Part shown: positions 39,294-46,579 of the stretch, piece by piece | Position numbering within the stretch: the first letter of the stretch is position 1 | Layout: each line of letters starts with the position of its first letter | Sequence record: PV390658.1 | Reading direction: 5' to 3' (one strand) | DNA length: 64,000 bases | Source: Escherichia phage vB_EcoM_P54 | Notes under the pieces: model-generated | What the model was told of the DNA's origin: nothing | The model's database searches: none | Seen by the model: only the letters and a program-made list of their open reading frames with translations | Position numbers and translations under genes: made by a program

Positions 39294-41993
39294 ATGGAAA
39301 ACGTAGATTTTAAAAACTTACATTTAGTTGGTGATACAGAAACTGATGGTTTACTCCTTGAGTTCACTAAGGTGCACGTAATGGCTTTCGCAGACTATAA
39401 ATCTGACGACGAAGAGCCACCTGTATGGGTCTTTACAGATGAACCTATCCTCGGTCACAAGTATACCAAGTACATTAAGGGTGGTTTGCGTGAAGGTATT
39501 GAGTTTGCGTTAAAGGCAAAACGACTTTGCATCCATAATGGTTTAGGATATGACTGGTGGGTTTTCAATCACATTGCACCTGATTTGTGGAACTTTGATA
39601 ATCCAAAGTGTAAGCCGTGGAGTAATTTCTTTCAGGATTCTCTTATCCAGTCTCGTGTTCAATGGATGGATAGACCAACTCCAAAAGGCTATAAAGGTGC
39701 TCATGGCTTGGCAGCATGGGGTGCTCGTGTTGGTGTCCGTAAACCAGAGATTGAACATTGGGGTGTGTGGAATGCAGAAATCTTCACTCGTGTTGTGGAA
39801 GATATCCGTATTAACGCCAAAACTAAACGTGCACTGGATAATGAATATCTCAAGCTGAAGAAGTGTGGCGTAGATACTTATGAAACCTACATGCGAGCTA
39901 AAGAAACATCTTTCTGGATGAGTCAACAAGCTATCAATGGTTGGAAAGCTGATAAAGAGCTTATGGAGTTCCATGTAAAGGAACTTGACAAGTTGACTAA
40001 TGAGCTTGCTTCAGAAGTTGAACCACATCTTCCTCCAACTATTAAGACCAAAGGTAAAGTCACTGGAGAAGAATTTGCAAAAGCTTGGAATGAGTATGTT
40101 GAAGCATTCGGTCATGCAGATGGACTGAAGAGAATTACTAAGTACCCTAAGACAAAGTATCGTCAGCAGGTACGTAATGGTGAGATGCAGACATATGAAA
40201 TCAAGCCATTTGGTAAACCAACTACCAAGATTTTTAACATTGAAAAGCGGAATTGCTATACACCAACCAACTCTGTAACTGGTGAAGAGTACAAGGAAGG
40301 CTTTGTAGCAATGAAGGATGCTCGTGCAATTTGCAATGAGTTGAATGCAAAGATTGGTAAGAAGTGCAAAGACTGGAAGCCAGTAAAAACAGTTAAAACT
40401 GTGAAGTACTATAACAGCCATGTTGTTAACCACTTTGAGCTTGAGTCAAGTCGCTACACAGGTTTGATTGATGCACCATATACACCAATTGAGTTCGAAG
40501 TTTCTCGTATGACTCAGGTAGCAGTTGTTAAAGACTACTTGAAATCAGTTGGTTGGATTCCAGATGACTGGAACTATAAGAAAGACTCTGATGGTCGTCC
40601 TGTTAAGGTTTGTCGCTTCAAAGACAACAAAAAGATGATTACAAAACATCCTAAGTGGGATGAGATGGTGGAACGGTGTGGTTTGAGTTATGTTGAACAC
40701 GAAGGTGTCCAGTACATTGAACATAACTGGTCTGTGAAGAAGTACACAGATTTGCTTGAGCCTTGCTTAATCCGTACTTCACCAAAACTTACTGAATCAT
40801 CTTATGATACAATTGAAGGTGAGCTTGGACAGAAGATTGCGAAATACTATACTTTGATGCACCGACGCAGAACTATTGAGAACTCAAAGGATGATGAAAA
40901 AGGTTGGTTGAACCAGATTCGTCCTGACGGTCGCCTTAGTGCTGGTGCAATGGTGTTTGGTACTTCAACTGGACGTATGACACAGTATGGTATTGTAAAC
41001 GTACCGTCTGGTGCTGCTGTCTATGGGGAACCAATGAGGGCAGTGTGGATTTGTGAAGAAGGTACTAACGTTGTCTCTGTAGACATGAACTCAGCCCAGC
41101 TAGTTCTTCTTTGTAACTTTATGGGTGACAAAGACTTCACTAAAGCGGTAACGCAAGGTAAAGAAGAGATTGAGTTTATTCGTCAAGAAGATGGACGCTA
41201 TTACTGCAAACATTTTGATGAGTACCTCAACCCAGAGATTGATAAGTACCTTCGCTATGACTCTGAGAATGACCTTTACGTTGTCTATTCAGGGACTGAT
41301 GCACACACACTGAACAGTATTTACTTTAGCTTGAATGATGAGCAGGATATCTTGACTTGTCGAGCTACTCAGGATGAGAACCTTCTCCATGAGATTAGCA
41401 AAGGTCGTAAGAAAGCTAAGAATGGTATCTATGCACTGCTGTTCGGTGCAGGTGATGAGAAGTTTGCTAAGACAATTAAGGCTGCAACTACTCAGGAAGG
41501 TGCACTGACTAAGCAGACTTACTTTATCCGTTTGCCTAAGATTAAGAAGCTGCTAGATGACTTGGAAGCTGACTACAAAGCAACTAAGAAGGCACTTGAA
41601 GAGGTGTTTGGTAAGACCGCTGCAATCTCTAAAGGGGGTTTTGTAAAGGTTGCTGGAGCTTGGTTGTGGTGTAAATCTCCACACAAACTGTTGAACTATC
41701 TTTTGATGGGTTCAGAGGCTCAGATTCAAAATGAGGCGATTAACCTTGCTTGTCGTCGTATGATTGACGAAGGTTTGATGAAGTTGAATGGTCGTCAACC
41801 AGCTATTGGTGCTCGTTTGCTCTGCGCATATCACGACGAGACGAGTTGGGAATGTCCAGAGAGTATGACGGCAGATGTGAAAGCAGTTACTGACTGGTAT
41901 TATGGGCAAGCTTCTAAAAACTTAGGTCTTAAGAAAGAAACGCTTGTTACAGGCACTGGTAAGGTTGGCAAAAGCTGGCTTGAAGTACACTAA
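39294..41993 (+). CDS. DNA polymerase, family A, with 3-prime to 5-prime exonuclease domain
   Basis: Exo I motif VGDTETDG; motif A-like VDMNSAQLVLL; motif B-like RKKAKNGIYALLFGAG; motif C YHDE; start moved to ATG at 39294. Confidence 0.85.
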   Translation: MENVDFKNLHLVGDTETDGLLLEFTKVHVMAFADYKSDDEEPPVWVFTDEPILGHKYTKYIKGGLREGIEFALKAKRLCIHNGLGYDWWVFNHIAPDLWNFDNPKCKPWSNFFQDSLIQSRVQWMDRPTPKGYKGAHGLAAWGARVGVRKPEIEHWGVWNAEIFTRVVEDIRINAKTKRALDNEYLKLKKCGVDTYETYMRAKETSFWMSQQAINGWKADKELMEFHVKELDKLTNELASEVEPHLPPTIKTKGKVTGEEFAKAWNEYVEAFGHADGLKRITKYPKTKYRQQVRNGEMQTYEIKPFGKPTTKIFNIEKRNCYTPTNSVTGEEYKEGFVAMKDARAICNELNAKIGKKCKDWKPVKTVKTVKYYNSHVVNHFELESSRYTGLIDAPYTPIEFEVSRMTQVAVVKDYLKSVGWIPDDWNYKKDSDGRPVKVCRFKDNKKMITKHPKWDEMVERCGLSYVEHEGVQYIEHNWSVKKYTDLLEPCLIRTSPKLTESSYDTIEGELGQKIAKYYTLMHRRRTIENSKDDEKGWLNQIRPDGRLSAGAMVFGTSTGRMTQYGIVNVPSGAAVYGEPMRAVWICEEGTNVVSVDMNSAQLVLLCNFMGDKDFTKAVTQGKEEIEFIRQEDGRYYCKHFDEYLNPEIDKYLRYDSENDLYVVYSGTDAHTLNSIYFSLNDEQDILTCRATQDENLLHEISKGRKKAKNGIYALLFGAGDEKFAKTIKAATTQEGALTKQTYFIRLPKIKKLLDDLEADYKATKKALEEVFGKTAAISKGGFVKVAGAWLWCKSPHKLLNYLLMGSEAQIQNEAINLACRRMIDEGLMKLNGRQPAIGARLLCAYHDETSWECPESMTADVKAVTDWYYGQASKNLGLKKETLVTGTGKVGKSWLEVH

Positions 41994-42054
41994 TTAGTAT
42001 TGACAAGGTGCTCATGGAAGAGTACCTTATACTATATCTTGTATAGGAGGTCAC

Positions 42055-42273
42055 ATGACACTTTCAGAGATTGAAGTTCAGTTGCAATGTGCAGGTTATT
42101 CTCAAAAAGAGATTGAAGGGATGTTTATTGTTCTTTGCAGTAGCTGTAGGAATTTGAAGGTAAACCCTGAAGTTCTACGTAGAGTAGATATCTTTATTGC
42201 TGGAGATAAAATCGCAAAAGATAAGACAGGCTACTTAAAAGGTGAGCGTGTAAATATTGAGAGTTTACTATGA
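42055..42273 (+). CDS. small protein (72 aa), paralog of 42476..42694
   Basis: AGGAGG SD; C-terminus GDKIAKDKTGYLKGERVNIESLL. Confidence 0.55.
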   Translation: MTLSEIEVQLQCAGYSQKEIEGMFIVLCSSCRNLKVNPEVLRRVDIFIAGDKIAKDKTGYLKGERVNIESLL

Positions 42274-42479
42274 GCCACCGTGGAAGAACCCATGCAGCGA
42301 TGATGAAAGGTGCTTCAAAGGAAACTATCAAGAACCGTAAGCAGAAGTTGTTTGAGAGAATGAACAGGTTAATTGACAATTCATCTCTTTCAGGTTCTGA
42401 GAAGGTTTTCTTGAAAGGTAATCTGAAAAGCATTGCACAAGAACTTATTGATATTGAATATTGGAGACATCAAAAATGA
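42270..42479 (+). CDS. hypothetical protein (69 aa)
   Basis: ATGA overlaps at both ends. Confidence 0.5.
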   Translation: MSHRGRTHAAMMKGASKETIKNRKQKLFERMNRLIDNSSLSGSEKVFLKGNLKSIAQELIDIEYWRHQK

Positions 42480-42694
42480 CACTTGCAGACGTTATTCAGC
42501 AACTTCACGATAATTGCTACACTCCTGAGTTGATTCAAGAGATGCTTATTGTGGTGATGCCTAGTAAGTTCTTAAAAGGTTTTAATCGTGAGGCTTTAAA
42601 GGTCGCACATATCCTTATCGTTGACGGTAAGATTGCAAGAGACCGTACAGGTGTTCTTAAGGGTGAACGCATTGATATCTTGGAATTGTTATGA
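42476..42694 (+). CDS. small protein (72 aa), paralog of 42055..42273
   Basis: ORF-track start 42461 is TTG; ATG at 42476 after GGAG; C-terminus DGKIARDRTGVLKGERIDILELL. Confidence 0.55.
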   Translation: MTLADVIQQLHDNCYTPELIQEMLIVVMPSKFLKGFNREALKVAHILIVDGKIARDRTGVLKGERIDILELL

Positions 42695-42870
42695 ATAGGT
42701 TATATAGTCTCTGGGGAAGGATGGGTAAAGACTCTGATTGGAACCTACTAAAAACAAACGTAAAAAGTAATGAGATAGCGTACTACAAAATTCATTACTA
42801 CAAAACTTTCAGAGAGCTTGAGTATCGTGAACAACAGACAGGAGAAGTATTATGTGGAAATCAGTAATTG
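42691..42870 (+). CDS. small hypothetical protein (59 aa)
   Basis: Not in the ORF track; ATGA overlap with the upstream gene; 3-prime end overlaps the next SD. Confidence 0.3.
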
Positions 42871-43088
42871 TGCTTGGTGTTATTTTTCTAGCTGGCTGCA
42901 ACCCTTCTTATGAAGATAAAAATGCTTCTTATAGCCTCCCACCAGAGATGCAAGATTGCAAAGTCTATAAGTTGCATGGTGATGCCATAAGTAGAGATAT
43001 TGTTGTTGTCAGATGTCCAAACTCTCAAACAACAACATCTTATAGTTATGGAAAAAATGGTCAATCACACACTACGGTTATTGAGTGA
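42852..43088 (+). CDS. small lipoprotein (78 aa)
   Basis: Signal peptide VIVLGVIFLAGC with lipobox LAGC; strong AGGAGAAG SD. Confidence 0.55.
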   Translation: MWKSVIVLGVIFLAGCNPSYEDKNASYSLPPEMQDCKVYKLHGDAISRDIVVVRCPNSQTTTSYSYGKNGQSHTTVIE

Positions 43089-43098
43089 GGTTTTCACG

Positions 43099-43305
43099 AT
43101 GGAAGTCCTAGTAAACTATATCTATTGTTATGATGTTGTTCACTCCACTACAACCGTAGCTCAACGTAACCCAATTGTCCCACGAGAAGGTGAATTGGTT
43201 CGCATTGAGGGTTGGACTTACACTGTGGAAAGTATCATTCATAAGTTTGATGTTGCTGGTGATGTTCAAGTTATCGACGTAGAGATTGGTGGTAAGAGAA
43301 AATGA
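43099..43305 (+). CDS. hypothetical protein (about 68 aa)
   Basis: ORF-track 43000..43305 overlaps the lipoprotein gene; ATG at 43099 has GTGAGG SD. Confidence 0.4.
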   Translation: MEVLVNYIYCYDVVHSTTTVAQRNPIVPREGELVRIEGWTYTVESIIHKFDVAGDVQVIDVEIGGKRK

Positions 43306-43461: not shown

Positions 43462-43653
43462 ATGAATAAAGAAGACAAGCATAAAAATGCTGTACGGACT
43501 CCTGATGGAAAGGTTCAATCCTTCATCCTGACAGTTGGTGGAAAGCCGTTTCGTTGCCACTGCGGAGCAAACTGTTTTCATAAACCAGATAAAAATGACT
43601 TAGAGCTTTACGCATGTAATGCTTGTAATACTTGGTATCACTCAGAGGAATAA
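43462..43653 (+). CDS. small Cys-rich zinc-ribbon protein (63 aa)
   Basis: CHCGANC ... CNACN motifs; stop immediately before the ligase SD. Confidence 0.45.
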   Translation: MNKEDKHKNAVRTPDGKVQSFILTVGGKPFRCHCGANCFHKPDKNDLELYACNACNTWYHSEE

Positions 43654-43654
43654 A

Positions 43655-44758
43655 ATGACAATACTGTACAAACAAAATAAAGACGGCTCTTTTAACGTCT
43701 GGTCATGCGTTGCTGTAGGTGACAAAGTTATTACAACCTACGGTAAAGAAAATGGCAAGATGATGTTTGAAGAGTACACAGCAGAACCTAAAAACATCGG
43801 TAAAAAGAATGAGCGTAACGCTGAACAGCAAGCTCTCTTTGAAGTTGCTGCTAAGTATAAAAAGCAGGTTGACCGTAAAGGCTACGCTTACACAAAAGAG
43901 TCTGCACAGAATACTGAGAAGGTAGGTGTACAGCTTGCTCATGATGCTGCAAAGGTTAGTCATGCAAAGTATCTGAAGTTCCCTGCTGATGCTCAACCGA
44001 AACTTGATGGTGTCCGTTGTAGGATTTCAAGGCACTTGAGTATTGGCAGTGTATTTACAGCATATTCTCGTGAGAATACTGTTTACAAAATCCCTACTGA
44101 ACTAATACCTGACATTATGGCAATGTTAAGGCTCCACAAAGATGTTGATGAATTTGATGGAGAGATTTATGCTCATGGGTGGGACTTAGAAGATATCGTC
44201 TCCATGATTAAAAATGAAGACAATCCTGACAGACACTTGCTCAAGTTTTACTGGTACGATATCTGTGACAGTACTAAGACGTGGCCTGAGCGTAGAGATA
44301 TTATTGAGACTTCACCATTGAATGACTTTAGAGATGGCTGTAAAGTTGTTCCTGTTAAGTCTCGTCGTGTAAATTCTTGGGAAGAGTTTGATGAAGCCCA
44401 TGATAAGTGGGTTGAAGCTCAGTTTGAAGGTGCAATGTACCGTTCAATCTCTGAAGACTCCTTCTATGAGTGTTGTCACCGTTCATACTTCTTGATTAAG
44501 CACAAGAAGATGCACACTGAAGAGTTTAAAGTGACTGGTGTAAAGACTGATAAGCGTGGTCATGGCAAGTTCGTTGTAGAGACTCTTCCTAACGTCTTTG
44601 TAGATGTCTCATGGAAGACTACTCATGAGAAGAAACAGTATCTTGCTGAGCATCCTGAAGAGTTTATCGGGAAACCTTTAACGGTTCAGTTCCAGAAGAT
44701 GACTCGTAAGGGGTCTTTACAGTTCCCTGTTGGGCTGGTTATACGAGATTATGAATAA
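43655..44758 (+). CDS. ATP-dependent DNA ligase
   Basis: Adenylation motif I KLDGVRC (KxDGxR); size typical of T7-type ligases; start at ATG 43655 after AGAGGAA SD. Confidence 0.8.
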   Translation: MTILYKQNKDGSFNVWSCVAVGDKVITTYGKENGKMMFEEYTAEPKNIGKKNERNAEQQALFEVAAKYKKQVDRKGYAYTKESAQNTEKVGVQLAHDAAKVSHAKYLKFPADAQPKLDGVRCRISRHLSIGSVFTAYSRENTVYKIPTELIPDIMAMLRLHKDVDEFDGEIYAHGWDLEDIVSMIKNEDNPDRHLLKFYWYDICDSTKTWPERRDIIETSPLNDFRDGCKVVPVKSRRVNSWEEFDEAHDKWVEAQFEGAMYRSISEDSFYECCHRSYFLIKHKKMHTEEFKVTGVKTDKRGHGKFVVETLPNVFVDVSWKTTHEKKQYLAEHPEEFIGKPLTVQFQKMTRKGSLQFPVGLVIRDYE

Positions 44759-46500: not shown

Positions 46501-46579
46501 AATCTGTTGACAAGTCAGGTGTTATAGCTTATTTTTATACTCAATGTAATACAAAATTTAATATAACTTTGAGGTCATT

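Follow-up and report, generated by a model that had tools for sequence, protein, structure and literature searches.

Hyperplastic regions rich in small genes are well known in T4-like and T5-like phages, in which packed and coupled ORFs lie between replication genes, cassettes are gained and lost, homing endonucleases are present, and an anti-defence gene occasionally occurs. In T7, the small early proteins gp5.5, gp5.7, and gp5.9, which act on host factors, are encoded after the DNA polymerase gene. Felix O1-like phages have found wide use in Salmonella typing and biocontrol, and we know of no role for most of their small early genes.

The locus considered here lies in the window (the whole 64-kb stretch of phage DNA that was analyzed), in a region that shares 85-98% identity with many Felix O1-like myophages (Ounavirinae, Felixounavirus) and for which Escherichia phage EcF-vB was the best full-length match (94.9%). 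Small genes on the plus strand follow one another closely: gene A, an optional upstream paralog of the protein family PHROG 4230 (42055..42273, 72 aa); gene B, which encodes a basic all-helical protein between the paralogs and belongs to PHROG 5180 (42270..42479, 69 aa, E 2e-46); gene C, the widely retained downstream PHROG 4230 paralog (42476..42694, 72 aa from its ATG); and gene D, a PHROG 2381 member that is the next ATGA-joined gene of the cluster (42691..42867, 58 aa). Genes A, B, and C are located directly 3' of the DNA polymerase gene, and the tightly packed small-gene cluster containing A-D ends at the DNA ligase gene (43619-44758). The A/B, B/C, and C/D junctions each consist of an ATGA start/stop overlap; in the whole window, ORFs of at least 50 aa meet in this way at only nine places, four of which are inside 42270-43302. 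These overlaps imply that A, B, and C are probably coupled in translation. A first-pass annotation of this DNA had described ORFs of 72, 69, and 72 aa joined by ATGA overlaps, and the ORFs and their junctions were all found where it had placed them.

In the records of related phages, the small genes of this region are annotated as hypothetical throughout, and the PHROG entries for A and C (4230), B (5180), and D (2381) do not list a function. The GenBank record of phage mio labels the orthologs of both A and C as pVOG VOG9270. Literature searches by PHROG number and on Felixounavirus comparative genomics, Felix O1 transcriptomics, and Ounavirinae anti-defence retrieved no paper on these genes. 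For PHROG 4230 and VOG9270, the databases record membership only, with no function, fold, or two-lineage distribution. The family itself was already catalogued.

Both A and C are full-length members of this family, with residues 1-72 of each aligned to positions 1-72 of the PHROG 4230 profile (E 2.3e-35 for A and 6.2e-42 for C). Direct comparison of the two proteins by BLASTP revealed 30 identities in 72 residues (42%, gapless, full length, E 3e-15), a value that was reached by none of 100,000 shuffles, the highest of which gave 15 identities. The identities are spread over all thirds of the protein (8/24, 8/24, and 14/24), and the similarity is thus neither short nor low-complexity, which removes the reservation in the first-pass annotation that it might be confined to a short low-complexity stretch. 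The same annotation had presented the near-identical C-termini as a feature of this pair; the ends were quoted correctly, but they represent the most conserved part of the protein throughout the family. In a 22-sequence alignment, positions Q9, L10, Y15, I46, I53, D56, T58, G59, K62, G63, and E64 were invariant in the family, and all of them are present in both window proteins. The hairpin-loop motif GK(I/L)xKDxTGxLKGE was also invariant and common to both lineages. Comparison of 29 A-type with 121 C-type sequences identified 20 positions conserved in both lineages, mostly within residues 46-64 (the hairpin and its loop), and 15 positions fixed differently between lineages, 10 of which fall within residues 5-21 (the two N-terminal helices). 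A and C have one surface motif in common, while another surface has diverged between them.

At the DNA level, A and C are only 52% identical, with a pS of 0.68 (dS ~1.8, saturated) and a dN of 0.62. This saturation makes a direct dN/dS comparison of A with C uninformative, and values within each lineage were used instead (Nei-Gojobori, fetched loci); these were 0.16 for A-type genes, 0.15 for C-type genes, and 0.06-0.08 for B, indicating that A, B, and C are all real, constrained genes. The earlier suggestion of diversifying paralogs holds insofar as 15 positions are fixed by lineage, but ratios of 0.15-0.16 speak against positive selection. Divergence between A and C is about as great as that separating either protein from the sole copies carried by distant metagenomic phages (38-46% identity), whose polymerase identity is only 66-74%. 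In a neighbor-joining tree, the C-type genes formed one clade with 100% bootstrap support, whose sister was the upstream copy from Michonne, a Citrobacter phage (92%). Window A paired with A of Shigella phage Sf19 (Mooglevirus) at 74% bootstrap, in a 72-aa tree whose resolution is limited and in which the A clade itself lacked bootstrap support of at least 50%. The two A genes are 92% identical in nucleotides, compared with 87-88% for the flanking polymerase end and B, and this higher identity of A than of its flanks suggests that the A cassette may have been exchanged between genera. Residue 51 of window A is D, compared with a nearly invariant G51 in the other listed A-type and C-type sequences. 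A and C are true and old paralogs, each of which has been maintained separately by purifying selection.

In a set of 5.8 billion proteins, a word-indexed search detected 133 relatives for C and 30 for A; most of these carry no source name, and the names that are shown all refer to Felix O1-like phages or enterobacterial records (E. coli, Salmonella, Shigella, and Citrobacter). When a profile built from both lineages was compared with 1.84 billion representative proteins, only 12 clusters were obtained at E <=0.001. PHROG 4230 is a narrow, phage-restricted family of ~70-aa alpha/beta proteins. In Pfam, there was no match for A, and C matched only YiiM_3-alpha (12.9 bits, E 0.11, cut-off 22.7); in NCBIfam, nothing was found for A or B, and only a local PRK15484 match for C. 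At E up to 1, neither database linked A, B, or C to a toxin or an antitoxin. Membership of A and C in a known anti-defence family (Tad2-like) was also considered and rejected, as neither protein matches the HMM of such a family in Pfam.

The census of cultured phages showed that 254 records carry the family, 218 of them with a C-type and 65 with an A-type protein at >=60% identity. C is the only copy in ~183, the upstream copy the only one in ~36, and both are present in ~35 of the ~254 records, all of these counts being approximate since they were derived from BLAST identity bands and numbers of BLAST "places" rather than from curated gene calls. By comparison, 258 records have a polymerase whose N-terminus matches that of the window at >=80% identity, and setting this number against the 254 family records indicates that at least one copy is near-universal in members of the subfamily that infect E. 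coli, Salmonella, Shigella, or Citrobacter. In Erwinia Kolesnikvirus, whose polymerase is 58-66% identical, no family member was detectable. The upstream copy is the sole copy in Mooglevirus, and Felixounavirus mostly has C alone. The order of polymerase gene, PHROG 4230 gene, and ligase gene is kept in phages whose polymerase is as low as 66% identical.

A survey of gene order, in which 30-odd related loci were classified, revealed a variety of arrangements after the polymerase gene. The order A-B-C-D is found in the window, mio, and UAB_Phi87, B-C-D in loci L007, L008, L010, and L013, and HNH-B-C in Felix O1 and others. Mooglevirus phages Moogle and Sf19 have A-B followed by another gene, which is preceded by an HNH gene in locus L019 (HNH-A-B-other). 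In Michonne, an HNH gene is followed by a C-like copy, B, a Tad2-like gene, and further genes. VpaE1 and SUSP2 have C with neither A nor B, and locus L027 has the family protein P0152 without B. In the metagenomic phages L036 and L037, the order is a C-type gene (in some cases after an HNH gene), B, and a P0152-type gene; paralogs again flank B in these phages, but the copy of the C lineage is upstream, so that the order is swapped. The Tad2-like gene occupies the slot after B in Michonne and in locus L035 (PF11195, E 3e-5, 24.9 bits, cut-off 25). A 75-83-aa protein encoded upstream of the family member in loci L023 and L024 was examined as a third paralog or a B homolog and rejected (hhalign probability 0.3%). 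No phage of the group among those examined lacked both copies. The A-B-C arrangement is one of several gene combinations, and A and C are distributed independently; the history of gain and loss drawn from them is based on these 30-odd loci and BLAST identity bands, rather than on a reconciled phylogeny.

Alignment of the junctions showed that gene A is a presence/absence cassette with exact ATGA-to-ATGA limits: after the same 61-bp spacer, the sequence continues as ATGA|CACTT... where gene A comes first and as ATGA|GCCACC... where gene B does, and in VpaE1 and SUSP2, C comes directly after the spacer. This spacer, which separates the polymerase gene from the first small gene (41994..42054, plus strand), stands before whichever gene is first, be it A, B, or C. 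It is 94-100% identical in 24 related loci, compared with only 72-96% for the adjoining 3' end of the polymerase gene, and its content is promoter-like: a perfect TTGACA (42000-42005), a -10-like TACCTT 17 nt after it (42023-42028; TACCAT in divergent loci), TATACT (42028-42033), and the Shine-Dalgarno sequence AGGAGG (42045-42050). The spacer may therefore be read as a putative promoter with a ribosome-binding site, as judged from its motifs and conservation; a consensus promoter scan did not list this promoter because the -10 element matches at only three of six positions. An imperfect hairpin could also be formed within it (AAGGTGCTC at 42005-42013 and GAGTACCTT at 42020-42028), with an RNA fold of -18.8 kcal/mol (z -2.4). 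A role of this hairpin as an RNA structure was rejected, since its pairs lack compensatory changes in the divergent loci L036 and L027; as the pairs are not kept, a role of the spacer as a promoter at the DNA level is more likely. An Rfam scan of 41800-43200 found nothing.

The only repeat between A and C at the DNA level is a 14-nt near-repeat of the gene A start at the beginning of gene C (42476..42489, plus strand), where ATGACACTTGCAGA matches ATGACACTTTCAGA (42055-42068) at 13 of 14 positions. Recombination between these repeats would delete A and B together, and it fits this possibility that C of VpaE1 and SUSP2 starts with the A-like version, ATGACACTTTCAGA. However, such a repeat-mediated deletion is not diagnostic, because C of Felix O1, which is downstream of B, also begins with MTLS (same serine codon).

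Fold prediction, which had been proposed in the first-pass annotation, yielded a confident AlphaFold2 model of C from a mixed alignment of A and C (pLDDT 92, pTM 0.79), with no solved relative. It contains a helix (3-12), a second helix (17-21), a strand (25-28), a third helix (38-43), a hairpin (46-49/52-56), the conserved loop, and a short C-terminal helix, i.e., an alpha-alpha-beta-alpha-beta-beta topology with a short helix at the end. The model matched neither a solved structure nor a nucleic-acid-binding fold, and a profile search of PDB sequences with the family gave no hit with E below 0.07. Foldseek comparison with predicted viral structures returned, apart from family members, only B0FIR2 of phage phiEco32 (TM 0.62, probability 1.0) and a related protein of EP335. 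B0FIR2 is the product of phiEco32 gene 100, and its relationship to the family was also detected locally by HMM (E 0.004, or 7.5e-4 with a broader profile). Counted from their sequences, A and C are near neutral in charge, and B has 15 K/R and 7 D/E. The AlphaFold2 model of B consists of three helices (pLDDT 87); Foldseek against viral models returned only its own orthologs and no informative fold match, and Pfam, NCBIfam, and PDB sequences gave no usable match for it. The sequence of B does not vary among many Felixounavirus genomes (100% identity), and Erwinia Kolesnikvirus and the T4-like Karamvirus CC31 each have B but no PHROG 4230 gene.

The account we favor is that the A-B-C arrangement would have arisen through the gain or loss of cassettes or recombination among phage lineages rather than by recent duplication in place, and that the A and C proteins may be non-enzymatic small binders, in which the conserved hairpin-loop would hold a partner common to both and the diverged helices would set specificity. 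Their role might be early and directed at the host (takeover or counter-defence), with the two paralogs widening the range of targets. Taken as a whole, this account (old paralogs, cassette history, binder proteins, and an early host-directed role) is considered on balance probable, if only slightly so. Its functional part, the early host-directed role of PHROG 4230, is preferred tentatively and somewhat short of an even chance. It is favored because of the restriction of the family to enterobacterial phages, the relative in phiEco32, and the homing endonucleases and the Tad2-like gene in the region, and the absence of the family from Erwinia relatives with a homologous polymerase was counted on the same side. 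On the other hand, anti-defence genes are usually patchier than gene C, which counts against it, and retention, strong purifying selection, and synteny with the polymerase gene would fit a core role (e.g., one linked to replication) at least equally well. In the main alternative, the PHROG 4230 protein would assist replication as a replisome accessory bound to the family-A DNA polymerase of the phage (or to the ligase), with A and C as interchangeable isoforms. In all arrangements, the gene is indeed found directly 3' of the polymerase gene, usually with the ligase gene further on, and this also holds for distant phages whose other small genes are different; at least one copy is present in ~254 of ~258 genomes; both lineages are under purifying selection; and one copy of either kind might suffice, since Mooglevirus has the upstream copy alone and Felixounavirus in most cases C alone. 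However, Erwinia Kolesnikvirus has a homologous polymerase (58-66%) and no detectable family member, the remote relative in phiEco32 does not adjoin the polymerase gene of that phage, the small genes have a conserved promoter-like spacer of their own, and the protein is near neutral with no match to a nucleic-acid-binding fold, so that a replisome role is regarded as unlikely.

Other explanations concern the three genes as a unit or their origin. If A-B-C were a three-part module, in which B acts with the PHROG 4230 proteins as a regulator-effector or toxin-antitoxin-like system and coupling fixes the ratios, the ATGA overlaps, the high conservation of B, the position of a PHROG 4230 gene next to B in most genomes, and the recurrence of the paralog-B-paralog sandwich with the lineages swapped in L036 and L037 would all be expected. 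An obligate module is weakened by the fact that each part occurs alone: C directly follows the spacer without B in VpaE1 and SUSP2, L027 has P0152 after the polymerase gene and no B, ~48 records carry the family without B at >=60% identity (BLAST counts), and B is found without a family member in Erwinia phages and the T4-like CC31. With no toxin or antitoxin match in Pfam or NCBIfam at E up to 1 either, the module appears quite improbable. A type II toxin-antitoxin pair in particular was rejected, given the lack of such domains in these databases and the separate occurrence of B and PHROG 4230 genes. The first-pass annotation had proposed a local duplication, possibly for dosage, and the equal length, same frame logic, and adjacent positions of A and C are what a recent tandem copy retained for dosage would show. 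The genes proved to be true paralogs, but recent copying in place was rejected: the 52% DNA identity, the saturated synonymous sites (pS 0.68), the 42% protein identity, and the 15 fixed lineage-specific differences are all against it, A groups with the Sf19 A from a different genus and not with the C gene of the same phage, the C-type genes form a clade of their own, and the copies occur independently of each other. Such an origin is accordingly considered very improbable. The same holds for the derivation of C-type proteins from, or their mimicry of, a segment of the host LPS N-acetylglucosaminyltransferase WaaK, by which synthesis of the phage receptor would be disturbed; the LPS core GlcNAc added by WaaK serves as the receptor of Felix O1. 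In a check that covered 22 family members, five distant members, and reversed and shuffled controls, all 11 C-types tested matched the WaaK model NCBIfam PRK15484 locally (C residues 4-53 on model positions 122-170, E 8e-5 to 4e-4), and the reversed and shuffled controls gave no match. The scores are only 19.6-21.2 bits, in contrast to a curated cut-off of 618 over a 380-position model (GT4), and no match was found for A-type or Michonne-type proteins or for P0152, P0153, P0156, and P0158. As only C-types match, the signal resides at positions that are not conserved across the family, and since the C-types are 78-99% identical to each other, the 11 matches are effectively one observation. In addition, the host listings show that E. 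coli K-12 serves to propagate phages of this group. The PRK15484 similarity of C-types is probably due to chance, and a WaaK origin is scarcely credible.

The favored account of small binder proteins with a cassette history can be carried further. PHROG 4230 might represent a new small fold, at least one copy of which would be needed by nearly every enterobacterial Felix O1-like phage; the hairpin-loop (GKIxKDxTGxLKGE) could hold a single conserved partner, which might be the phage polymerase or a factor of the host, and at least two classes of specificity (A and C) would have emerged through divergence of the N-terminal helices, so that phages with both classes, in which B is always flanked in either order, may cover two target variants. 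This extended form is doubtful, although, if true, A and C would constitute a compact natural two-allele specificity system. The family stands out by its near-universal retention, its position next to the polymerase gene, its confidently predicted fold without a solved relative, and its two lineages that can replace or accompany each other, which makes it a well-defined and cheap target for knockout and pull-down work. The finding alone changes no current view, as diverged paralogous cassettes are common in plastic regions of phages, and the A-B-C locus should be regarded as a well-defined but fairly ordinary feature of such a region, with a modest extra interest that comes from retention and fold.

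Compared with described systems, the locus resembles that of gp5.5, gp5.7, and gp5.9 in that those small genes also follow a T7-like family-A polymerase gene; PDB searches gave no likeness in sequence or fold, and homology is not claimed. Gene 100 of phiEco32 belongs to a leftward cluster, located on the right side of gene 79, that is described as early and probably devoted to host takeover (PMC8948821). The gene 100 product (B0FIR2, 73 aa) is 22% identical and has the '(I/L)I(I/V)DG.(I/L).K' hairpin in common with the family; however, it ends right after this hairpin, without the TGxLKGE loop and tail, and it is encoded by a podophage gene that does not adjoin a polymerase gene. The locus also resembles the hyperplastic regions of T4-like and T5-like phages, in that the stretch between polymerase and ligase genes has packed small ORFs, turnover of cassettes, homing endonucleases, and a Tad2-like gene. 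It differs from these regions in that PHROG 4230 is retained in essentially every genome and stays beside the polymerase gene even in distant relatives, which is unusual for a gene in such a setting.

The interval between the DNA polymerase and DNA ligase genes opens with a 61-bp spacer (window 41994-42054), which was also found in the related loci L001-L022, L027-L029 and L036 (a metagenomic phage). According to the locus comparison, this spacer is 94-100% conserved at the nucleotide level, exceeding the coding sequence on both sides, and it stands directly before the first small gene, whichever gene that is. In its composition it resembles a sigma-70-type promoter (TTGACA and TACCTT separated by 17 nt), after which come TATACT and AGGAGG. 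At 46507-46541 of the window, another site was observed that combines TTGACA with TATACT across a gap of 23 nt.

In many relatives, an HNH homing-endonuclease gene separates the polymerase gene from the spacer, as in Felix O1 (L002 1740-2243) and in loci L012, L014 and L018; it is absent from the window. Where the endonuclease is 98-100% identical to that of Felix O1, the 3'-terminal 600 nt of the polymerase gene have only 72% identity to the window, compared with 87-96% in loci without the insert, a pattern resembling divergence linked to the endonuclease in the vicinity of its insertion site. In some relatives, including VpaE1 (L028 1-2439), L005 and L010, an insert of approximately 700 bp interrupts the polymerase gene itself, which there consists of two ORFs. 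Since the VpaE1 insert holds an endonuclease VII-like gene, the sequence suggests that the splitting element is a mobile intron or intein-like element.

Among the small genes, the paralogs A and C (72 aa each, PHROG 4230) showed two peculiarities. Residues 4-53 of protein C (gene at 42476-42694) aligned locally, at about 21 bits, with positions 122-170 of the NCBIfam model PRK15484 (LPS N-acetylglucosaminyltransferase WaaK), and LPS core GlcNAc is reportedly the receptor of Felix O1. The match was limited to C-type proteins, reversed and shuffled controls for it were negative, and the similarity to WaaK is probably due to chance. In gene A, codon 51 (42205-42207) encodes aspartate (AGDKIAKD) at the turn of a conserved hairpin, a position occupied by glycine in the other listed A-type and C-type sequences; as GD is likewise found in P0152, a divergent lineage of the family, this aspartate is probably tolerated.

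Toward the ligase gene, gene E (42852-43088; 78 aa, PHROG 902) encodes a protein with a lipoprotein-type signal (...FLAGC) at its N-terminus, and its homologs in L034 and L035 matched Pfam DUF4884. Gene H (43462-43653; L001 5394-5612) shares its final 35 nt with the beginning of the ligase gene and encodes a cysteine-rich, zinc-ribbon-like protein of 63 aa (CxC...C, then C..C). Its homolog is labeled 'DNA ligase' in the GenBank record of phage mio, which looks like an annotation transferred from the adjacent gene.

The basic protein encoded by gene B (42270-42479, PHROG 5180) is 100% identical across many Felixounavirus genomes, and homologs with 50-59% identity were detected in Erwinia Kolesnikvirus phages and T4-like Karamvirus phages such as CC31, where the gene adjoins a tRNA cluster (homologs: L030 3001-3252, L031 2495-2707); Erwinia phage Cronus provided a further match. 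The slot after gene B is occupied in Citrobacter phage Michonne (L020 3207-3410) and in L035 (3396-3605) by a gene for a protein of about 65 aa that matches Pfam Tad2-like (Thoeris anti-defence 2, PF11195; E 3e-5), its 24.9 bits just missing the cut-off of 25. Based on this gene, the polymerase-ligase interval may be a site where counter-defence genes are kept.
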